From Acholeplasma sp. (GTDB taxonomy: Bacteria; Bacillota_I; Bacilli_A; Acholeplasmatales; UBA5453), in NCBI GenBank assembly GCA_036677365.1, contig JAVBWN010000012.1, positions 96,001 through 160,000 of the forward strand: a DNA stretch of 64,000 nt, given 5' to 3'. Position numbers: made by a program. Numbering within the stretch: the first letter of the stretch is position 1; each line of letters opens with the position of its first letter. Positions 18,001 to 30,000 of the stretch are shown here, piece by piece.

Positions 18001-21000
18001 TTAGTACTGATGCATGACCTCTCTCAATTTACACTAGTTTTCTATGGAGTTAAGTAAAGCTACTTAAAAGAGTTTGATCAAATGATTAGTGTTGCAATGG
18101 CAAATAGTATGATGGATGTTGGATTCATACCTGAAAAAATCAGTGCATATCTTAATCATCAACTAGAAGCAATGACATTTAGTAAAACAAAAAGTAGAAC
18201 CTTGGTAACCAAATTAAATAAGGCTGTTTAAATGAAAGATCATGTATTAAGCACTGATGATTTTCATGAAGATGCTATTGAACAACGCCATGCAAGTTTA
18301 TTTAACAATCAGCTGCTCGTTTGCGAAGACAAGAATAAAATTTGTTATTATCCAAAAGAAAAACTGCGAGAATATATCGAAATTTAAGATGTTGTAGACA
18401 CTAAAATGTCACCAACATCTTTTTTCCTCTTTCGAAAAGTTCAAATTCGTTTTAAGACTAGGTTTTTATTTAACGATTTTCATGTTACTATTAAAGTGGA
18501 TTAAACAATATAATAGGACTTGAGGACAATTCAAATGAAAGAACTAACATCGCTTGCTGAAATATTTAATCAAAAGATTTTACGCATTCCAGATTATCAA
18601 AGGGGATATGCCTGGCAAGATGATCAGCTCAAGTATTTGGAGATGCCGTTATCCATGGAAATGCTAGAATCAAAGGTACCATGAAAGCGAGTAAACCAGT
18701 CACTGTAATTGATAATAGCGATGTAATCATGACTATGGCTGATAACAAAATCCATATCTATCAGAGTACAGTATACACTGAAGAAGAACTTCCAGATAAA
18801 TATAGAGGTGTTTTGGGTTTTAAATAAATCCTGTCATAATATACGATTGTAGACATAAATAATATATTAGATATATAACAATATTATGCTTTGTATAAAT
18901 CACTAACAGATAAGTAGATTCATTAGTCACTTCTTATCTGTTTTTTTTGATCTCTAAAGTGATGTCTTATTTAAATAAATTCATTTAGTGTTATTAAAAA
19001 ACGCTTCCACATGGTAAAATTTAATTATAAGTGGGGACGAAATAAGATAAAAATCATTCATAGTTCTTGAGACTGTATTTTATGGCTTGGGATATGTGAT
19101 TTTTGATAAGGAGAGTACAATTGAATGAGCATTATATTTATTGATTTTCAGAAAAACCTGACTGAAACGAAAACAAATAGATATTCCTTTTTTTGCTATT
19201 CATTAGAAGAACAGTATCAACACATCACATCGCGCATCCCAATAGAAAAAAACATAACAAATAGTTTACAAGAACTGATTGAAATCTGTTTCCCAACTAG
19301 GTTTGTTAAAAAATACTATTTTACATCATCCAATTTCAAGCGTGATAAGAGAGATGGTGTTAATGGAACAACCTTTTTAAACAATATCGTTATTAGACCA
19401 GAATTGACACCACAAATGAGGAGTTTCTTACCGGATAAAACCAACATCATCTTGATTGGTGATATTCAGGAAAACGATAAATACAAAACTTTCATTGTAA
19501 AAGGTATCGAACTCATTGATGAATTTATATCAACAACCAATGATATTCAAATCAATGATAGCTACTGTGCCCATTCATTTGGCATGGGACAATCCTATTA
19601 TGGTAAACCATATACGAAATGGACAATTGATAATCCGCCACATGAAAGCTCTTTATTCACACCAGATTTTGTTGCAAATCTGATAAAAAACTGTTATCCA
19701 ATGTCAACAACAAGTGTAGTTCAAGTACATAAAGCCATTGATCAATGGCAAACTTATATCACCTTTAGACAAAAGTATCTCGAATTACAAACACAACGTC
19801 AATTTCAACTAGCTCAAGTAGAATACATCACAGCGTATTCTATCAATCGTCAAACTTACAATAGAAATGCTTCACAATATGAAGAAGACATAATTGTCGC
19901 CCATGAAGACTTTAAAAAAGGGGAACAAATACTACTCAAAAATCCTGTACCAGAATCTGAAGAAATCAATTTGATTGCGACACACATTGACTACAACAAA
20001 AAAACCTTCATTGAAAATAGCAAGCTTGATAAGCGTGGTTTTTTAGTTAATCCTGAAGAAAAAACACTTAGAATCATGTCCAGAGAAAATGTCGCTATAA
20101 GTAAAGTTAAGCCAACAGTAAATAATTACGATCAAGTACTTAAAGATAGCTTTACACTTGACGACCGCTATAAACTAATCAAACAAGAAATCAAACCTGA
20201 CTGTAAGAAAATTGTGAAGGAATATGACGATCTAATCAAACAACAAACCAAAGCCATTCAAGACCGTTATCAAGCATTGATTCAACAAGAAACACAGTCC
20301 TTAAAGAAAATAGAACAACAACGATTGGATGATGAACTAGAATCTACCATCCAAACCATTCGAAGTGAGTATGTAAAAAAACTAGAAGAAATCATTCAAA
20401 AAAATGATGATATAGAAATTCAAAACGAAATCAATCGAATGACTGAAGCCAAAGATAAAGAACTCAACAAAGAACTCAATTCAAGAATCAATAACATTGA
20501 TAAAAAAGAAAAAGATAGAGAAAGCTTAGTCAAAACTTTAAAGGATGCGAAAGAAAATAAACTCAAAGCATTTACAATGTCTATCGATGTTAAAGGTCTT
20601 TATGATGCGAAATTCAATCGAATGTTAGAACAAGTGAGTAAAGATCAAAAAACCAAAAACGATCAATGGATTAAATCCTTTGAAACTTCTAAAAAACTAG
20701 AACTCAACACGAAGTATAGCAACCAAATCATTCAAGAAATTGATAAGAAAAAAGTTGAACTAGATGAGAAAAGGGATAAAGAAATCGAACTCAAAATTCA
20801 AAATGAAACGATTCTTCGATTTTCTATATACTATAAGTTTAATGCGGAAAATTTCAATATAAGTAATGTGCAGTTTGGCTCATACAAGTGGCTTATTTAC
20901 GACCATAGGGCAGAAAAGGCAAAAATTAACCGTCAGGAGAATGCCCTTAAAAATTTCTTTGAAGGCAATGTCAAAAATCCATATTTATCTACTTACTTAT

Positions 21001-27000: not shown

Positions 27001-30000
27001 ATGTCTATTTGAATGATAAAGGTAAAATACAAAATATCAAAGAATCGTTGGATAGCATCCTCAAAGACTTAAAATACGATGACATCATATTTTGGGACAG
27101 AATTGATGGTGCAGTAGGGAATTTACAAAACTTACAGATCATCGATGAAACCAAGGTTGAAGGTGACAACTATCTAGATGAAGCTGATGAAGTTACACCT
27201 GAACCGAAAACAGGATTATTTAAACAGCCAGCGGAAATCTTTAATATTGTTTTGAAGAACTTGACCAACCCAAAAAAGAAAATTGCTTTTGTCTTAAACT
27301 GGGCGGAATACTTATTTGATGGTGGTGGCCAACAAATCGCAGGGGAAGGGTTAGATAATATTACCATCTTAGGCAAAGCACTCAAAGACAAAAAGATTGA
27401 TTACTACAATCCCGATGTGAATGAAAGTACCATCATATTCATCACCAACAAAATTTCGTTGTTTCCAATCTCGTTTTATCAAGGTAATCCAGAAGTAAGT
27501 TCAATAACATTGACTAAACCAGATCGTCTTGAACGTGAAAGAATGATGGAAAAAATCGAAGATTCATTCAATGTAAGAGTACCAGGAAATGTAGCACTGA
27601 TGTCCAGTGAAAAGAAAGCCGAATATGTAGATATGCTTGATGATTTTACAAATCGAGAAATCATTCAGATTTCCAAATTGTCACGAAAAGAAGACAAAAT
27701 GACTTTTGATAAATTGTTCTATCTGTTCAAATACGGTGAAAAAGAAAACCCATGGGAAAAACTCGATTACAATGAAGTCAAAAACATCAAGAAGCGTCTT
27801 TCTGAAAGAGTAGTTGGACAAGAAGAAGCCATTGAGAAAATCGAAAAGACCATCGTTAAAGCCTATATGGGTTTAACCGGAATTCATAAAACATCCTCTC
27901 GAAGTATGCCTAAAGGAATATTCTTTTTTGTCGGACCAACGGGGGTTGGAAAAACAGAATTATCCAAAGCTTTGGCTAAATTTCTATTTGGTGATGAACA
28001 AGCATGTATTCGCTTTGATATGAGTGAATACGCAACCGAAAACAGTGATCAAAAACTGATTGGTGCAGCTCCTGGTTATGTCGGTTATGAAGAAGGCGGA
28101 CAGCTTACCAACGCAGTTAAAGAGAAACCTTTCAGTGTTATCTTATTCGATGAAATTGAAAAAGCAGCCAAACCTAACCCACGTATATTAGATATATTCC
28201 TACAAATATTAGAAGATGGTAGATTAACCGATTCAAAAGGCGAAACCGTCTATTTTAGCGATACCATCATCATTTTTACCTCTAACTTAGGGGCTTCACA
28301 AGTTCAGATATCAGCAGATCACGAAGACGTTTCTAAACAATTCATCAAGATTGTGAAAGAGTATTTTGATACTGAAATTAGAAGACCAGAAATACTCGGT
28401 AGAATTGGTTATAGCAACATCGTACCGTTTAATTTTATCGTCGATAAAGAATTCGTCATGAAGATTGCGAAATCCAAACTTAAACCGATAAAAGCTGGTA
28501 TATTCGAGAAGTATCGCATCGATTTAGAGTTTGAAGATGAAATGAAGTTTGTTAACTACATCTCCACCAAAGTCGATATTGCTAAAGGTGGTAGAGACAT
28601 TTTAAATGCCATTAATGATCATTTATTAGAACCTCTAGCCATGTTCATGTTTAGCAATAAGAATGATTTATCCAGTTTTAAAGGCGGAAAGATTGTGGTT
28701 AAACTCACAGGAAGCGGGTTAAATTTTGGATTCGATATTAACTAATCAAGTCAAATTTAATGTAGCCAGAATCATCACAGTTTCTGAAGTAGAAGGACCA
28801 TTTAAACGCATGGCCATTTGGTTTCAAGGGTGTGATATCAACTGTTTTGGTTGTTGTAATCCAGAGTTACAACTTTTTAAAGTTGCTAATATCATGACAT
28901 TTGAACAGATTCTTCAATTAATCATTGAGACTAAGGATAAACACGGCATTGAAGGTGTGACTTTTTGTGGTGGGGAACCCTCTCTTCAACAAAACCTACA
29001 TGTATTGGGTTTAAAACTTAGAGAGCTAAACATTGGAACCATTATGTTTAGCGGAAAGTACATAGAGCAACTACCCAAAGCACTGGTAGAATCGATGGAT
29101 ATGATTTTGGATGGCCCGTTTATTCTAAGTAAATTAGAAAAAGAAAGAAGATTACTCGGTTCAACAAATCAAAGAATCATAAATATAACCGATCGCTATA
29201 AAAAACATACGAATTGGTTTTATGATAAGAAAGAAATGATTCAAGAAATAAACATGTCTGAGGCACTCTATTTTAATGGGGATGCATTGGTTGATAATGA
29301 CCATAAATCAGAAAGGTAATGAAAAATGGCTAAGTTAATCCCCGATTTACAAAAAATAAAAACAAGTATGAGACCTAAACCAGAAATTGGTGAAATGTTT
29401 TTACTCGAATTATTAGCTAAGGAACTTAGTGATGAATGGCATGTTTATTTTCAAGTTAGCATAGATGGAAGCCACCCTGATATTGTTTTGGTGTGCCAAA
29501 ATTTTGGTGTAATAATAATTGAAGTAAAGGATTGGAATTATAATAATTATCACATTTTAAGTGAAGATAATAGGGACAAATGGATATTAAAATCAAAAAA
29601 TCAAAGAATTAAATCACCAATAGATCAAGTAGATGAGTATCGCTGGTTAGTGAAAGAAAAATTAGTCAGTATTATTAATGAAGATGAGTATAGTAATGTG
29701 ATCAGAAATATTGTCGGTATGGTGTATTTTCATAACTTTACGAAAACCGAGATTAATCATGTAGCATCTGTAAGTTATAAATGCGAGAATTACATTAAAC
29801 TATTAAACCGTGAAATATGTTTGGAGTCGAAATTTATGTCAATTCTTAACAAATTCATTTTACATAAAAACAGAAAATGTTTTAGTGAACAAGTTATAGA
29901 AGGGTTTATAAATGTATTTAAACCTTCCCTGAATTGGTTGGACACTATGTTTCCCAATGAATTATTTCATTTTAATAAAAAGCAATTAGAACTATCTATA

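Follow-up and report, generated by a model that had tools for sequence, protein, structure and literature searches.

A conserved helicase, AAA+ ATPase and radical SAM operon as a candidate conflict system, with a chromosomal form in Spiroplasma

Closest described systems

In Mokosh, a helicase works alongside a nuclease effector; type I comprises MkoA and MkoB, the latter a PLD-type nuclease, and type II is represented by MkoC. Neither Dodola (DolA/DolB) nor PDC-M37 (A/B) is known to include a helicase, a radical SAM enzyme or a partner protein with an RNase. Hhe is a DUF4011 helicase-nuclease anti-phage protein (NF042953). The genome-wide survey's note had likened the operon described here, from an Acholeplasma genome, to Mokosh and Dodola/PDC-M37, and PADLOC agrees as far as the helicase and AAA+ cores. 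The gene 1 core matches MkoA (2.7e-90 for residues 1160-1488; 1.3e-84) and MkoC (8.8e-26), the match being confined to residues ~650-720 and 1152-1488. MkoB is not matched among the eight proteins scanned, and Mokosh lacks the AAA+ unfoldase, coiled-coil partner and radical SAM enzyme that the operon has. The matches of gene 4 to PDC-M37B (4.4e-34) and DolB (1.9e-21) are limited to its AAA+ region (residues 207-464, 273-459), and PADLOC detects neither DolA nor PDC-M37A among the operon's neighbours and nothing at all for genes 2 and 3. Gene 1 matches the Hhe profile weakly (5e-8, 30.7 bits vs a cut-off of 2000) and carries neither DUF4011 nor a REase domain.

Proteobacterial plasmids (NZ_CP032284.1, NZ_AP024856.1, NZ_CP109792.1) carry these five genes in unchanged order, with a helicase of 1274-1631, gene 2 of 619-720, gene 3 of 371-379, AAA+ protein of 612-617 and radical SAM enzyme of 193-202 aa. 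Profiles of genes 3, 4 and 5 from the Acholeplasma match them at E 2e-36 to 1e-208, whereas identity in the AAA+ N-domain is only 22-26%. The plasmid proteins are annotated as 'AAA domain-containing', 'PIN domain-containing', 'hypothetical' and '4Fe-4S single cluster domain', and the system is unnamed. As the earlier note had reported, a literature search finds no papers on the operon.

Organization and conservation of the operon

The window is the whole 64,000-nucleotide stretch of Acholeplasma DNA that was analysed. An ORF check finds the five-gene unit at window positions 19125-29319, with every ORF on the + strand and exactly where the survey had placed it:

19125-23642, + strand: gene 1, SF1B/Upf1-like helicase, 1505 aa (AAA_11/AAA_12)
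23642-25795, + strand: gene 2, putative adaptor/effector protein, 717 aa, with a C-terminal HEPN-type domain (DUF4145, RNxxxH)
25319-25789, + strand: HEPN-type domain of gene 2, residues 560-716 (DUF4145)
25691-25708, + strand: RNDLEH motif of gene 2, residues 684-689
25792-26907, + strand: gene 3, coiled-coil protein, 371 aa
26563-26856, + strand: small conserved C-terminal alpha/beta domain of gene 3, residues ~258-355
26919-28745, + strand: gene 4, ClpB-D2-like AAA+ ATPase, 608 aa (AAA_2)
28726-29319, + strand: gene 5, NrdG-like radical SAM enzyme, 197 aa, TTG start (Fer4_12)
28831-28854, + strand: CX3CX2C motif of gene 5, residues 36-43

Successive genes overlap by 1, 4 and 20 nt or are separated by a single 11-nt gap, and no terminator-like site is found on the + strand in window 16900-31200. 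All five genes stand in order in 19 of 29 genome loci; eight short contigs carry consecutive subsets, and two long loci (L021, L030) carry only the 3' part. Both IMG/VR loci examined have all five genes, and the conservation claimed for IMG/VR holds to that extent; the earlier count of 4/4, obtained with different queries, is not reproduced. This conservation is far above chance. The five genes are shown to be one co-inherited, horizontally spreading operon, the conserved unit that the survey had proposed. The sequences retain the catalytic motifs of all three enzymes.

Helicase, RNase-type and coiled-coil proteins

The domains assigned by the survey to the helicase, ClpB-like ATPase and radical SAM enzyme are confirmed by Pfam, PADLOC and NCBIfam matches. 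Gene 1 matches AAA_11 (E 2e-22), AAA_12 (E 1e-44) and, under the cut-off, the IGHMBP2 family (NCBIfam, 4.9e-57), and its helicase motifs GPPGTGKT, DEVSK, QYRSH and VALSRAR are readable. A long coiled-coil insertion runs from motif I (~residue 670) to motif II (~residue 1190). The N-terminal region (1-~640) has no family match; Upf1/SMUBP-2/MOV10 barrel domains are weak Atlas leads for residues 1-345 (scores <0.8).

The N-terminal part of gene 2 is a conserved alpha/beta region, after which the protein is helical. Its AF2 model (mean pLDDT 89.3) is beta-rich over residues 1-350 and all-helical over 351-717, and a Foldseek search with it gives no informative match. The HEPN call, described earlier as sub-threshold, remains so for the whole protein (DUF4145, 21.1 bits vs a cut-off of 23.1), yet the C-terminal 160 aa alone reach 24.3 bits. 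DUF4145 is also matched by 12 of 16 relatives, RNxxxH is present in 17/17 mobile versions, and H121, R124, R127, N128 and H132 (segment numbering) are invariant in 16 sequences. In all three proteobacterial plasmid copies PIN_4 ends gene 2 at the same C-terminal position as HEPN in the window, and the detectable sharing with the window's gene 2 is only ~130 N-terminal residues, as in the Photobacterium plasmid protein. The comparison shows that the predicted RNase-type domain ending gene 2 is swapped between lineages, HEPN here and PIN on proteobacterial plasmids.

Gene 3 has an AF2 model (pLDDT 74.5) with helices at 9-270, four strands at 281-317 and a helix at 323-338, and a basic tail beyond the C-terminal alpha/beta domain. 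That domain is the best-conserved stretch of the family and resembles the spermine synthase N-domain (VIA Z 8.3, rmsd 2.5, 85 aa; Foldseek E 0.1). Our gene 3 profile collects 490 representatives at E<=1e-3; the survey's figure of 429, which came from a different query, is not reproduced exactly.

AAA+ ATPase and radical SAM enzyme

Gene 4 matches AAA_2 (2e-52) and ClpB_D2-small, and residues 287-580 match solved ClpB/ClpC D2 domains (E 5e-57). It shares with Hsp100 proteins of the ClpB/Hsp104/ClpV type the second AAA+ ring domain, the pore loop (GYVG) and the D2-small domain, but lacks their ClpN domain, active D1 ring and M-domain, and reaches 256.9 bits against the ClpB cut-off of 1232 (TIGR03346). 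The ring domain is predicted to be active; 78 D2 columns are invariant among 38 sequences. The N-domain (1-285) is family-specific and without Walker A; it may be a degenerate AAA-like domain. A search of 50,697 phage records finds nothing that matches it, which, like the lack of PADLOC matches for genes 2 and 3, speaks against a defence role. Across mobile copies, gene 4 is ~70% identical and the other four genes 25-45%.

Gene 5 matches Fer4_12 (2.5e-23), Radical_SAM (2.8e-10), phrog_626 (1.9e-23) and NrdG TIGR02491 (73.8 bits, 1.4e-20; under the cut-off of 126.1), with YjjW and PflA activases as further family matches. Its likeness to NrdG/PflA activases lies in the CX3CX2C cluster motif, the GGEP SAM motif and GS.NQ, all invariant in 32 sequences that include Spiroplasma (C36, C40, C43, GGEP 82-85, G145, S146, N148). 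It nevertheless scores below every curated cut-off and has a C-terminal extension specific to the family. NrdG/PflA activases go with glycyl-radical enzymes; gene 5 instead always adjoins the AAA+ gene. The same pair occurs in a second architecture, in two independent records (L081, L088), with a DUF4011 helicase-REase, Ser/Thr kinase, FHA protein and phosphatase. The first protein of that architecture is Hhe-like, with DUF4011, SF1 helicase and MTES_1575 REase domains in L081 and a DUF4011 annotation in L088. Genes 4 and 5 are thereby shown to be a core of two genes, found again in the company of another helicase, kinase and FHA set.

Proposed function

Among the readings considered, we tentatively favour the operon as an undescribed conflict (anti-phage or anti-plasmid) system that would combine an RNase effector with a protein-directed unfoldase/radical SAM module and would have been domesticated in Spiroplasma; judged from sequence, this is quite possible rather than probable. 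A scaffold sensing foreign nucleic acid, probably RNA, would be built from the Upf1-like helicase and its coiled-coil arm together with gene 3, itself a coiled-coil protein. Sensing would release the gene 2 RNase to cut RNA, stopping either the invader or the cell it has infected. As a threading unfoldase, the ClpB-like ATPase may offer a segment of a polypeptide to the NrdG-like activase, and the activase would abstract a hydrogen atom from this segment by glycyl-type radical chemistry. The complex would be switched on in this way, or a target protein irreversibly damaged.

The survey had identified no glycyl-radical partner, and our searches agree. By our own reading of the sequences, none of the partner proteins has a GRE-like C-terminal Gly motif, and the window's own genome has no NRDD/NrdD. 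Two of three Spiroplasma genomes tested, all of which keep gene 5, lack both Gly_radical and NRDD, which suggests that the activase serves the operon itself. Acinetobacter and Polaromonas, plasmid hosts of the operon, are aerobes, and this argues against a long-lived glycyl radical.

Both the missing acceptor and the aerobic hosts would also suit a defence or conflict system whose radical SAM enzyme has a small molecule or nucleotide, not a protein, as its substrate, giving a viperin-like analogue or signal or a QueE-like 7-deazapurine-type product, with the AAA+ protein working independently. Weak matches to PADLOC pVip (E 6e-4), QueE-like phrog_2076 (9e-6) and QueE TIGR03963 (7.5e-5) point the same way, and the C-terminal extension could shape a substrate pocket. 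We consider this unlikely, however: by far the best matches of gene 5 are the protein-activating enzymes above, its sole solved-structure match is the PFL activase 3c8f, and 197 aa is the minimal NrdG type. Nucleotide-metabolism genes are not conserved alongside, and in both architectures the gene strictly adjoins and overlaps the AAA+ gene.

The operon may also work without its radical SAM gene, as four-gene variants lacking it (L076, L078) and a frameshifted copy in a same-genus genome (G008) suggest.

The chromosomal form in Spiroplasma

The TGA-reading family in which the survey saw a near-universal chromosomal operon is Spiroplasma. An independent marker, the AAA+ N-domain, reproduces the reported pattern (47/399 genomes of the phylum; 32/54 in family f7; 18/18 in one genus), though not the exact 38/399 and 31/54, which came from different queries. 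All 14 f7 loci fetched carry the operon under table 4. Near-universality applies to the Spiroplasma-type genera (g35 20/20, g36 3/3, g49 17/21) but not to the family as a whole (45/80), five other genera having none (0/25 together). The flanks are leuS, folD and fhs, or glyA, rplM and rpsI, and no mobile genes lie nearby. For all five genes dN/dS is below 1, gene 2 evolving fastest (0.35-0.59) and the ATPase slowest (0.10-0.20); the Spiroplasma operon is vertically inherited and under purifying selection. Vertical retention over long times is uncommon among defence systems, and the behaviour of the Spiroplasma operon as a housekeeping locus speaks against a defence reading.

The second gene of this form had been described as only weakly similar. 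It does lack the HEPN domain (RNxxxH in 0/12 versions), but it is a true homologue of the window's gene 2 over the N-terminal two-thirds (hhalign 95.4%, E 2e-8).

These features could also fit a cellular machine for RNA or RNP quality control or remodelling, in which the Upf1-like helicase would work together with an unfoldase and a modifying enzyme. The Spiroplasma form would then be ancestral, and the mobile forms with HEPN or PIN would have been derived from it secondarily, as weapons or selfish elements. The near-universal, syntenic and vertical occurrence in Spiroplasma genera, the housekeeping flanks and the selection on all five genes argue for it, as do motifs kept intact in the helicase, ATPase and radical SAM enzyme where the nuclease is missing. 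RNA-library contigs of a ~93-95% identical relative cover the whole operon, although such coverage does not show transcription. Yet the operon is not generally required, being missing from the five other genera of the family and from 352 of the 399 genomes of the phylum sample; it is pseudogenised or split in some g49 genomes (G438, G441), and in G140 it is interrupted by three unrelated genes. Its distribution outside Spiroplasma is patchy and mobile, and the unrooted tree does not tell which form came first. We hold such a machine to be improbable. Under the conflict-system reading, an old copy would have become a vertically inherited chromosomal operon that lost the RNase and kept the other three enzymes; the Spiroplasma copy may thus be a domesticated derivative whose present role is perhaps no longer defence.

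Mobile copies and defence context

Only two of 41 close relatives carry the operon, and two of ten genomes in the window's genus. The second copy in the genus (G008) is 33-71% identical to that of the window and has other flanks. In the unrooted AAA+ tree, the mobile copies form a tight clade (SH-aLRT 100) of records labelled Bacillota and Mycoplasmatota. Flanks vary between loci. In the window, the operon lies in a defence island and is flanked by type I R-M, GIY-YIG, NERD+UvrD helicase (PADLOC C3a187, 1.3e-58), Abi_2 and Fic genes; these flanks, with serine recombinases at three other loci (L005, L082, L083), uphold the description as island or mobile cargo. It is on genomic context that a defence role rests.

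The module might also serve its carrier element, not the host, as a device by which integrative elements or plasmids achieve addiction, exclusion, counter-defence or an edge over competitors. In favour of this, L082 and L083 each have a pair of large serine recombinases directly upstream and L005 has one, 11 loci have a CI-like HTH gene just ahead of the operon, seven of 11 plasmid records with the operon are typed conjugative and the Leisingera copy is near repABC. We hold it to be very unlikely: the window has no adjacent recombinase and host-type defence genes as neighbours, chromosomal fixation in Spiroplasma away from mobile genes ill suits a purely selfish role, and a five-gene, 10-kb module would be large for an addiction cassette. 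On an Acinetobacter plasmid, the operon is followed by a thymidylate-kinase-like gene and a second radical SAM gene.

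The operon and its conservation

Five genes on the + strand occupy window 19125-29319 (locus names from the genome-wide survey in brackets):

19125-23642, + strand, gene 1, helicase, 1505 aa
23642-25795, + strand, gene 2 (g599), protein with a HEPN-type end, 717 aa
25792-26907, + strand, gene 3 (g600), coiled-coil protein, 371 aa
26919-28745, + strand, gene 4 (g601), AAA+ ATPase, 608 aa
28726-29319, + strand, gene 5 (g602), radical SAM enzyme, 197 aa

Successive genes overlap by 1, 4 or 20 nt, with one pair 11 nt apart, and no terminator-like site was found on the + strand within window 16900-31200. 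With the gene 3 protein as query and one genome per species scanned, 29 loci were obtained. The complete set occurs in the same order in 19 of these; eight lie on contigs too short for the operon and show consecutive subsets, and two long loci (L021 and L030) hold only part of gene 3 with genes 4 and 5. The set is also complete in both IMG/VR loci found by the gene 3 profile (2/2), each preceded by two large serine recombinases. These counts bear out the genome-wide survey's note, which had described one conserved unit: the five genes are one unit. Identity across the gene 3 loci is highest for the ATPase (~70%), followed by the radical SAM enzyme (~45%), gene 3 (~37%), the helicase (~36%) and gene 2 (~25%). 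In 11 loci the gene directly upstream of the operon encodes a CI-like HTH protein of ~178 aa; the window has no such gene at this place.

Products of genes 1 to 4

Gene 1 encodes an SF1 helicase, as identified by Pfam AAA_11 and AAA_12. The PADLOC profile MkoA matches it at 2.7e-90, only over profile positions 792-1098 of 1112, and the IGHMBP2 family at 4.9e-57, under its cut-off. A long insertion separates motifs I and II. The ~640 N-terminal residues (two-fifths of the protein) have no family match, and an Atlas search with residues 1-345 gave scores all below 0.8.

The whole gene 2 protein has a single weak family match, DUF4145 (21.1 bits, cut-off 23.1), which we take to be a member of the HEPN clan. 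Scanned alone, its C-terminal 160 aa pass marginally (24.3 bits vs 23.1), and 12 of 16 relatives match. Alignment of this segment shows an R-x3-RN-x3-H motif with invariant residues; RNDLEH lies at residues 684-689, and RNxxxH is present in 17/17 mobile relatives. The protein has the HEPN features, an Rx4-6H motif in a C-terminal helical domain, and the HEPN call, previously based on a motif and sub-threshold DUF4145 matches, now also has a match just above the gathering score. An AF2 model (pLDDT 89.3) is beta-rich over residues 1-350 and all-helical over 351-717, including 559-714. Foldseek with this model returned only helical-repeat noise and no informative structural neighbour, comparison of the HEPN segment with the PDB by profile gave nothing relevant, and Atlas found only the protein's own family. 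In the three proteobacterial plasmid copies, and only in these forms, gene 2 ends in PIN_4 (3/3); PIN was not found in the window's gene 2, which has HEPN/DUF4145 instead. Because PIN_4 ends the plasmid proteins and HEPN the window's, gene 2 consists of a shared N-terminal part joined to an exchangeable RNase-type end.

Gene 3 has no supported family match; a search of 1.84 billion proteins places 490 representative clusters in its own family at E<=1e-3. Foldseek found nothing at E<=1e-3, and a wide VIA search returned generic helical bundles and, for the C-terminal domain, the spermine synthase N-domain, which point to no function. A link to DUF2997/DUF1257 was rejected: the window protein matches at E 0.005, yet only 2/31 family members match DUF2997. 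For this reason the cyanobacterial DUF2997-ycf35-fed7 gene cluster (PMC4284462) was not used to interpret gene 3. G272 is invariant and followed by F or Y; as a candidate radical site it is no more than a lead. A few family representatives (P0183, P0251, P0265 and P0303) reach 613-656 aa and match gene 3 in their C-terminal part; they may be fusions or merged gene calls.

Gene 4 encodes a ClpB-D2-like AAA+ ATPase (AAA_2, 2e-52), and solved ClpB/ClpC D2 domains match residues 287-580 at 5e-57. Its N-domain (residues 1-285) lacks a Walker A motif. Six positions (183, 187, 273, 278, 438 and 506) are kept in at least 34 of 35 proteins linked to a radical SAM gene and altered in all three proteins without one, a pattern that is weak evidence because these three form a single clade. 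Two of the six, G273 and P278, belong to KYGEKxxPWEK, the linker motif that joins the N-domain to the AAA+ ring; as a candidate radical site, G273 is likewise only a lead.

The radical SAM enzyme and the search for a client

Gene 5 encodes a minimal NrdG-like radical SAM enzyme (Fer4_12, 2.5e-23) that scores below both NrdG models (TIGR02491, 73.8 bits vs a cut-off of 126.1; TIGR02826, 56.1 vs 151.7). C36, C40 and C43 of the CX3CX2C motif, GGEP at 82-85 and a GS.NQ motif are invariant in 32 sequences. A classical client was not found. The Pfam scan detected no Gly_radical domain in the operon proteins, and no C-terminal Gly motif like that of glycyl-radical enzymes was seen by eye in any operon partner. 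One PFL-like gene is present in the window's genome, on a different contig, and NrdD is absent: NRDD (PF13597) has no match there or in S. monobiae (G055) and S. kunkelii (G145); G008, of the same genus as the window's genome, and G053 do match. Gly_radical (PF01228) has no match in the three Spiroplasma genomes tested, and S. monobiae and S. kunkelii have neither domain. The earlier remark that no glycyl-radical partner was identified holds for the operon proteins and for S. monobiae and S. kunkelii. From this lack and the motifs invariant in 32 sequences, we propose that gene 5 works within the operon. The ATPase is its constant partner in both gene architectures described here.

The radical SAM gene of one Spiroplasma subclade, which takes in S. 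kunkelii, S. phoeniceum, S. citri and S. melliferum, carries a fused Redoxin/thiol-peroxidase domain at its C-terminal end (L071:11787-12893, L073:7838-8944). G140, of the same subclade, encodes this domain as a separate gene immediately downstream (L070:7567-8067). A mechanistic role for this domain was set aside, as its confinement to one subclade is too narrow.

Plasmid forms and a second architecture

In tblastn the ATPase N-domain matched 11 plasmid records, six of them from Moellerella and the others from Polaromonas, Photobacterium, Acinetobacter, Leisingera and Aristaeella, and nothing among 50,697 phage records. Three proteobacterial plasmids (L084, L085 and L089) carry all five genes in an unchanged order, and the profiles of window genes 3, 4 and 5 give matches at E 2e-30 to 1e-208. 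This PIN-type operon, which has no system name, is the closest relative of the window operon, and the latter is its HEPN variant.

The radical SAM/ATPase pair also occurs in a second architecture, found in G283 (L081, G283:C2:63700-83600) and on the Aristaeella plasmid NZ_CP069422.1 (L088). Its order is DUF4011-helicase-REase, Ser/Thr kinase, a protein without assignment, zinc-ribbon-FHA, radical SAM enzyme and ATPase, followed on the Aristaeella plasmid by a PP2C-type phosphatase, DUF6273 and a second kinase. No homologue of gene 2 or gene 3 was found in either locus. Four-gene versions without the radical SAM gene are present at L076 and L078. A related ATPase, also without this gene, lies beside Dcm methylase, NOV_C, HATPase_c_3 and Z1-domain genes in G264 (L077, G264:C1:473500-493400), another defence-island-like setting.

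Comparison with named systems

The operon had been said to combine parts resembling Mokosh and Dodola/PDC-M37, and such likeness is limited to the helicase and AAA+ cores. For Mokosh, the MkoA match is confined to the helicase core; the system's second protein, MkoB, is a PLD-type nuclease, and it is absent at E<=0.01 from the eight proteins of 19125-34558, with no PLD family in Pfam. In Dodola, DolA is a DUF6414 protein; DolB matches gene 4 at 1.9e-21 on residues 273-459 only, the shared AAA+ core, and among the operon proteins there is no DolA in PADLOC and no DUF6414 in Pfam. For PDC-M37, M37B matches gene 4 at 4.4e-34, and M37A is found in no neighbour. Gene 5 has the CX3CX2C and SAM motifs in common with NrdG, but misses the equivalog cut-offs, and NrdD is missing from the window's genome. 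Only the D2 part of ClpB is matched by gene 4 (TIGR03346, 256.9 bits vs 1232.1), which has one ring only. Judged from these comparisons, the window operon falls outside all five, because it lacks MkoB, DolA and M37A, scores below the NrdG cut-offs without NrdD, and has a single ring where ClpB is concerned.

The operon is a multi-gene system set in what reads as a defence island and assembled from known kinds of components, and the pairing of unfoldase and activase at its core is unprecedented in the searchable literature. The genome-wide survey's note had found no paper on it; in agreement, no description of the gene set was found in CC-licensed PMC papers and bioRxiv, and passages from PMC7159879 and PMC10853773 do not describe it.

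Genomic surroundings and mobility

The flanks of the operon (type I R-M, AAA_25, GIY-YIG, the gene remnants, NERD+UvrD, Abi_2 and Fic) can be read as a defence island; the list also gives the stretches 4229-8283 and 36164-45126:

4229-8283, ORFs of 362 and 376 aa (no Pfam match), Hsp70-like gene (6440-7978, HSP70 2.6e-51) and 102-aa ORF
8842-14760, type I R-M, flanking the operon
17717-19125, apparent remnants of decayed genes, 1.4 kb directly upstream of the operon, no ORF >63 aa
29326-33238, NERD+UvrD helicase (PADLOC C3a187, 1.3e-58), then a 702-aa protein without family match
36164-45126, Endonuclease I, two ADP-ribosylglycohydrolases, Macro-domain protein and M50B-like peptidase
window flank, AAA_25 and GIY-YIG genes (domain matches)
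farther on in the window, Abi_2 and Fic genes (domain matches)

The NERD+UvrD helicase and the 702-aa protein adjoin the operon and are conserved with it in 0/29 loci. The genes of 4229-8283 lie a short way upstream of those for type I R-M and may form a further island module, and ADP-ribosylation is the theme of the cluster at 36164-45126. Within the remnants, a short frame (18520-18684) encodes ...IPDYQRGYAW..., a motif type that we associate with DUF262/GmrSD-type proteins.

Gene 3 is present in only 2/41 close relatives. One of the two, G008, has an operon copy that is 33-71% identical to the window's, in unrelated flanks. Its radical SAM gene (L087, G008:C1:614100-614670) is in two frames, covering residues 1-78 and 64-186 with a stop between them, and the break is a frameshift or an assembly error. 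Together these features point to an independent acquisition of this copy.

The operon in Spiroplasma

The ATPase N-domain, used as an independent marker, matches 47/399 genomes of the phylum sample, including 32/54 of family f7 and 18/18 of its genus g35, all with in-frame TGA. Exact protein look-ups identify the carriers in this family as Spiroplasma, among them S. monobiae, S. kunkelii, S. citri, S. melliferum and S. phoeniceum; their annotations call the products hypothetical, AAA family ATPase, NrdG-activating protein or thiol peroxidase. A family-wide search was positive in 45/80 genomes: 20/20 in g35, 3/3 in g36, 17/21 in g49 (one decayed and one split copy included) and five single-genome genera, with 0/25 in five other genera. 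In each of the 14 fetched loci of the family all five genes keep their order under table 4. Housekeeping genes flank the operon, either leuS, folD and fhs or glyA, rplM and rpsI. For genera g35, g36 and g49 this agrees with the earlier description of a near-universal chromosomal operon in a TGA-reading family.

In a quick, unrooted ML tree of the ATPase, the Spiroplasma sequences group together (SH-aLRT 94) and show deep subdivisions that resemble genera, and the mobile forms are a tight clade (SH-aLRT 100) whose hosts carry different labels. In five Spiroplasma pairs dN/dS is <1 for every gene of the operon, with dS saturated in most pairs: 0.10-0.20 for the ATPase, 0.13-0.22 for the radical SAM enzyme, 0.14-0.37 for the helicase, 0.19-0.52 for gene 3 and 0.35-0.59 for gene 2. 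In a single RNA library, contigs of a ~93-95% identical relative cover the whole operon, which was not counted as expression because such a library may contain DNA.

Helicase, ATPase and radical SAM enzyme all retain their catalytic motifs in Spiroplasma. Gene 2 of this family had been called only weakly similar. Plain HMM searches between the mobile and Spiroplasma proteins indeed find no match, and a locus search with the Spiroplasma protein found no relative; profile-profile comparison nevertheless detects homology over the N-terminal two-thirds (hhalign 95.4%, E 2e-8, 417 columns). A match to the HEPN segment profile, or an RNxxxH-like motif within the last 220 residues, occurs in 0/12 Spiroplasma copies. 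The Spiroplasma form is unusual and probably domesticated. In G140 (L070:10650-13877), three unrelated genes separate gene 3 from the ATPase gene; they encode a DeoR regulator, an amidohydrolase and a spiralin-like lipoprotein, and the five operon genes are intact.

Possible mechanism and significance

We tentatively read the unit as a conflict system, a reading drawn from domain content and gene neighbourhood to which we give somewhat less than an even chance. The helicase, whose insertion is a coiled coil, and the likewise coiled-coil product of gene 3 would form a nucleic-acid-sensing scaffold, the RNase end of gene 2, HEPN or PIN, would be the effector, and the threading ATPase and radical SAM activase would act on protein, either to switch the complex on or to damage a target.

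Among the alternatives, a housekeeping RNA/protein quality-control machine is the best fit for Spiroplasma, with its housekeeping flanks and dN/dS <1; for the unit as a whole, which also sits on plasmids and in the window's putative island, it is unlikely. Equally improbable is a defence or conflict system whose radical SAM enzyme yields a small-molecule product: the missing classical client would be compatible with it, and the constant partner of the enzyme is a ClpB-D2-like ATPase. That the operon is a device serving the mobile element that carries it, as on plasmids and beside serine recombinases, is very unlikely given the chromosomal Spiroplasma copies.

A more specific form of the conflict reading, which we consider quite unlikely, makes the ATPase and the NrdG-like enzyme a new immune or remodelling effector. 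A polypeptide fed by the unfoldase, whether a protein of viral origin or a latent effector of the system itself, would receive a backbone radical, leading to irreversible cleavage, crosslinking or activation. The pair would be a portable module joined to Upf1-like or DUF4011 helicases, and the nuclease-free copy would be a vertically inherited core machine of Spiroplasma. If so, protein-directed radical chemistry would be used in conflict. If the conflict reading holds, the operon would be a multi-gene system around an Hsp100-type unfoldase and a glycyl-radical-type activase, a pairing unreported in searchable papers. It occurs in Mycoplasmatota, in Bacillota and on proteobacterial plasmids.

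Testable questions follow: whether the operon protects against phages or plasmids, what the NrdG-like enzyme targets where the genome is without a glycyl-radical enzyme, and why a nuclease-free copy persists under purifying selection in nearly every Spiroplasma genome. The HEPN/PIN swap and the kinase/FHA-linked architecture offer natural controls for separating sensor, effector and core modules. On the Acinetobacter plasmid NZ_CP032284.1 the PIN-type operon is followed directly downstream (L084:12718-14700) by genes for a thymidylate-kinase-like protein, for a radical SAM protein of 328 aa and for a small protein without assignment, an arrangement of kinase and radical SAM protein that presumably resembles a viperin-with-kinase pair.
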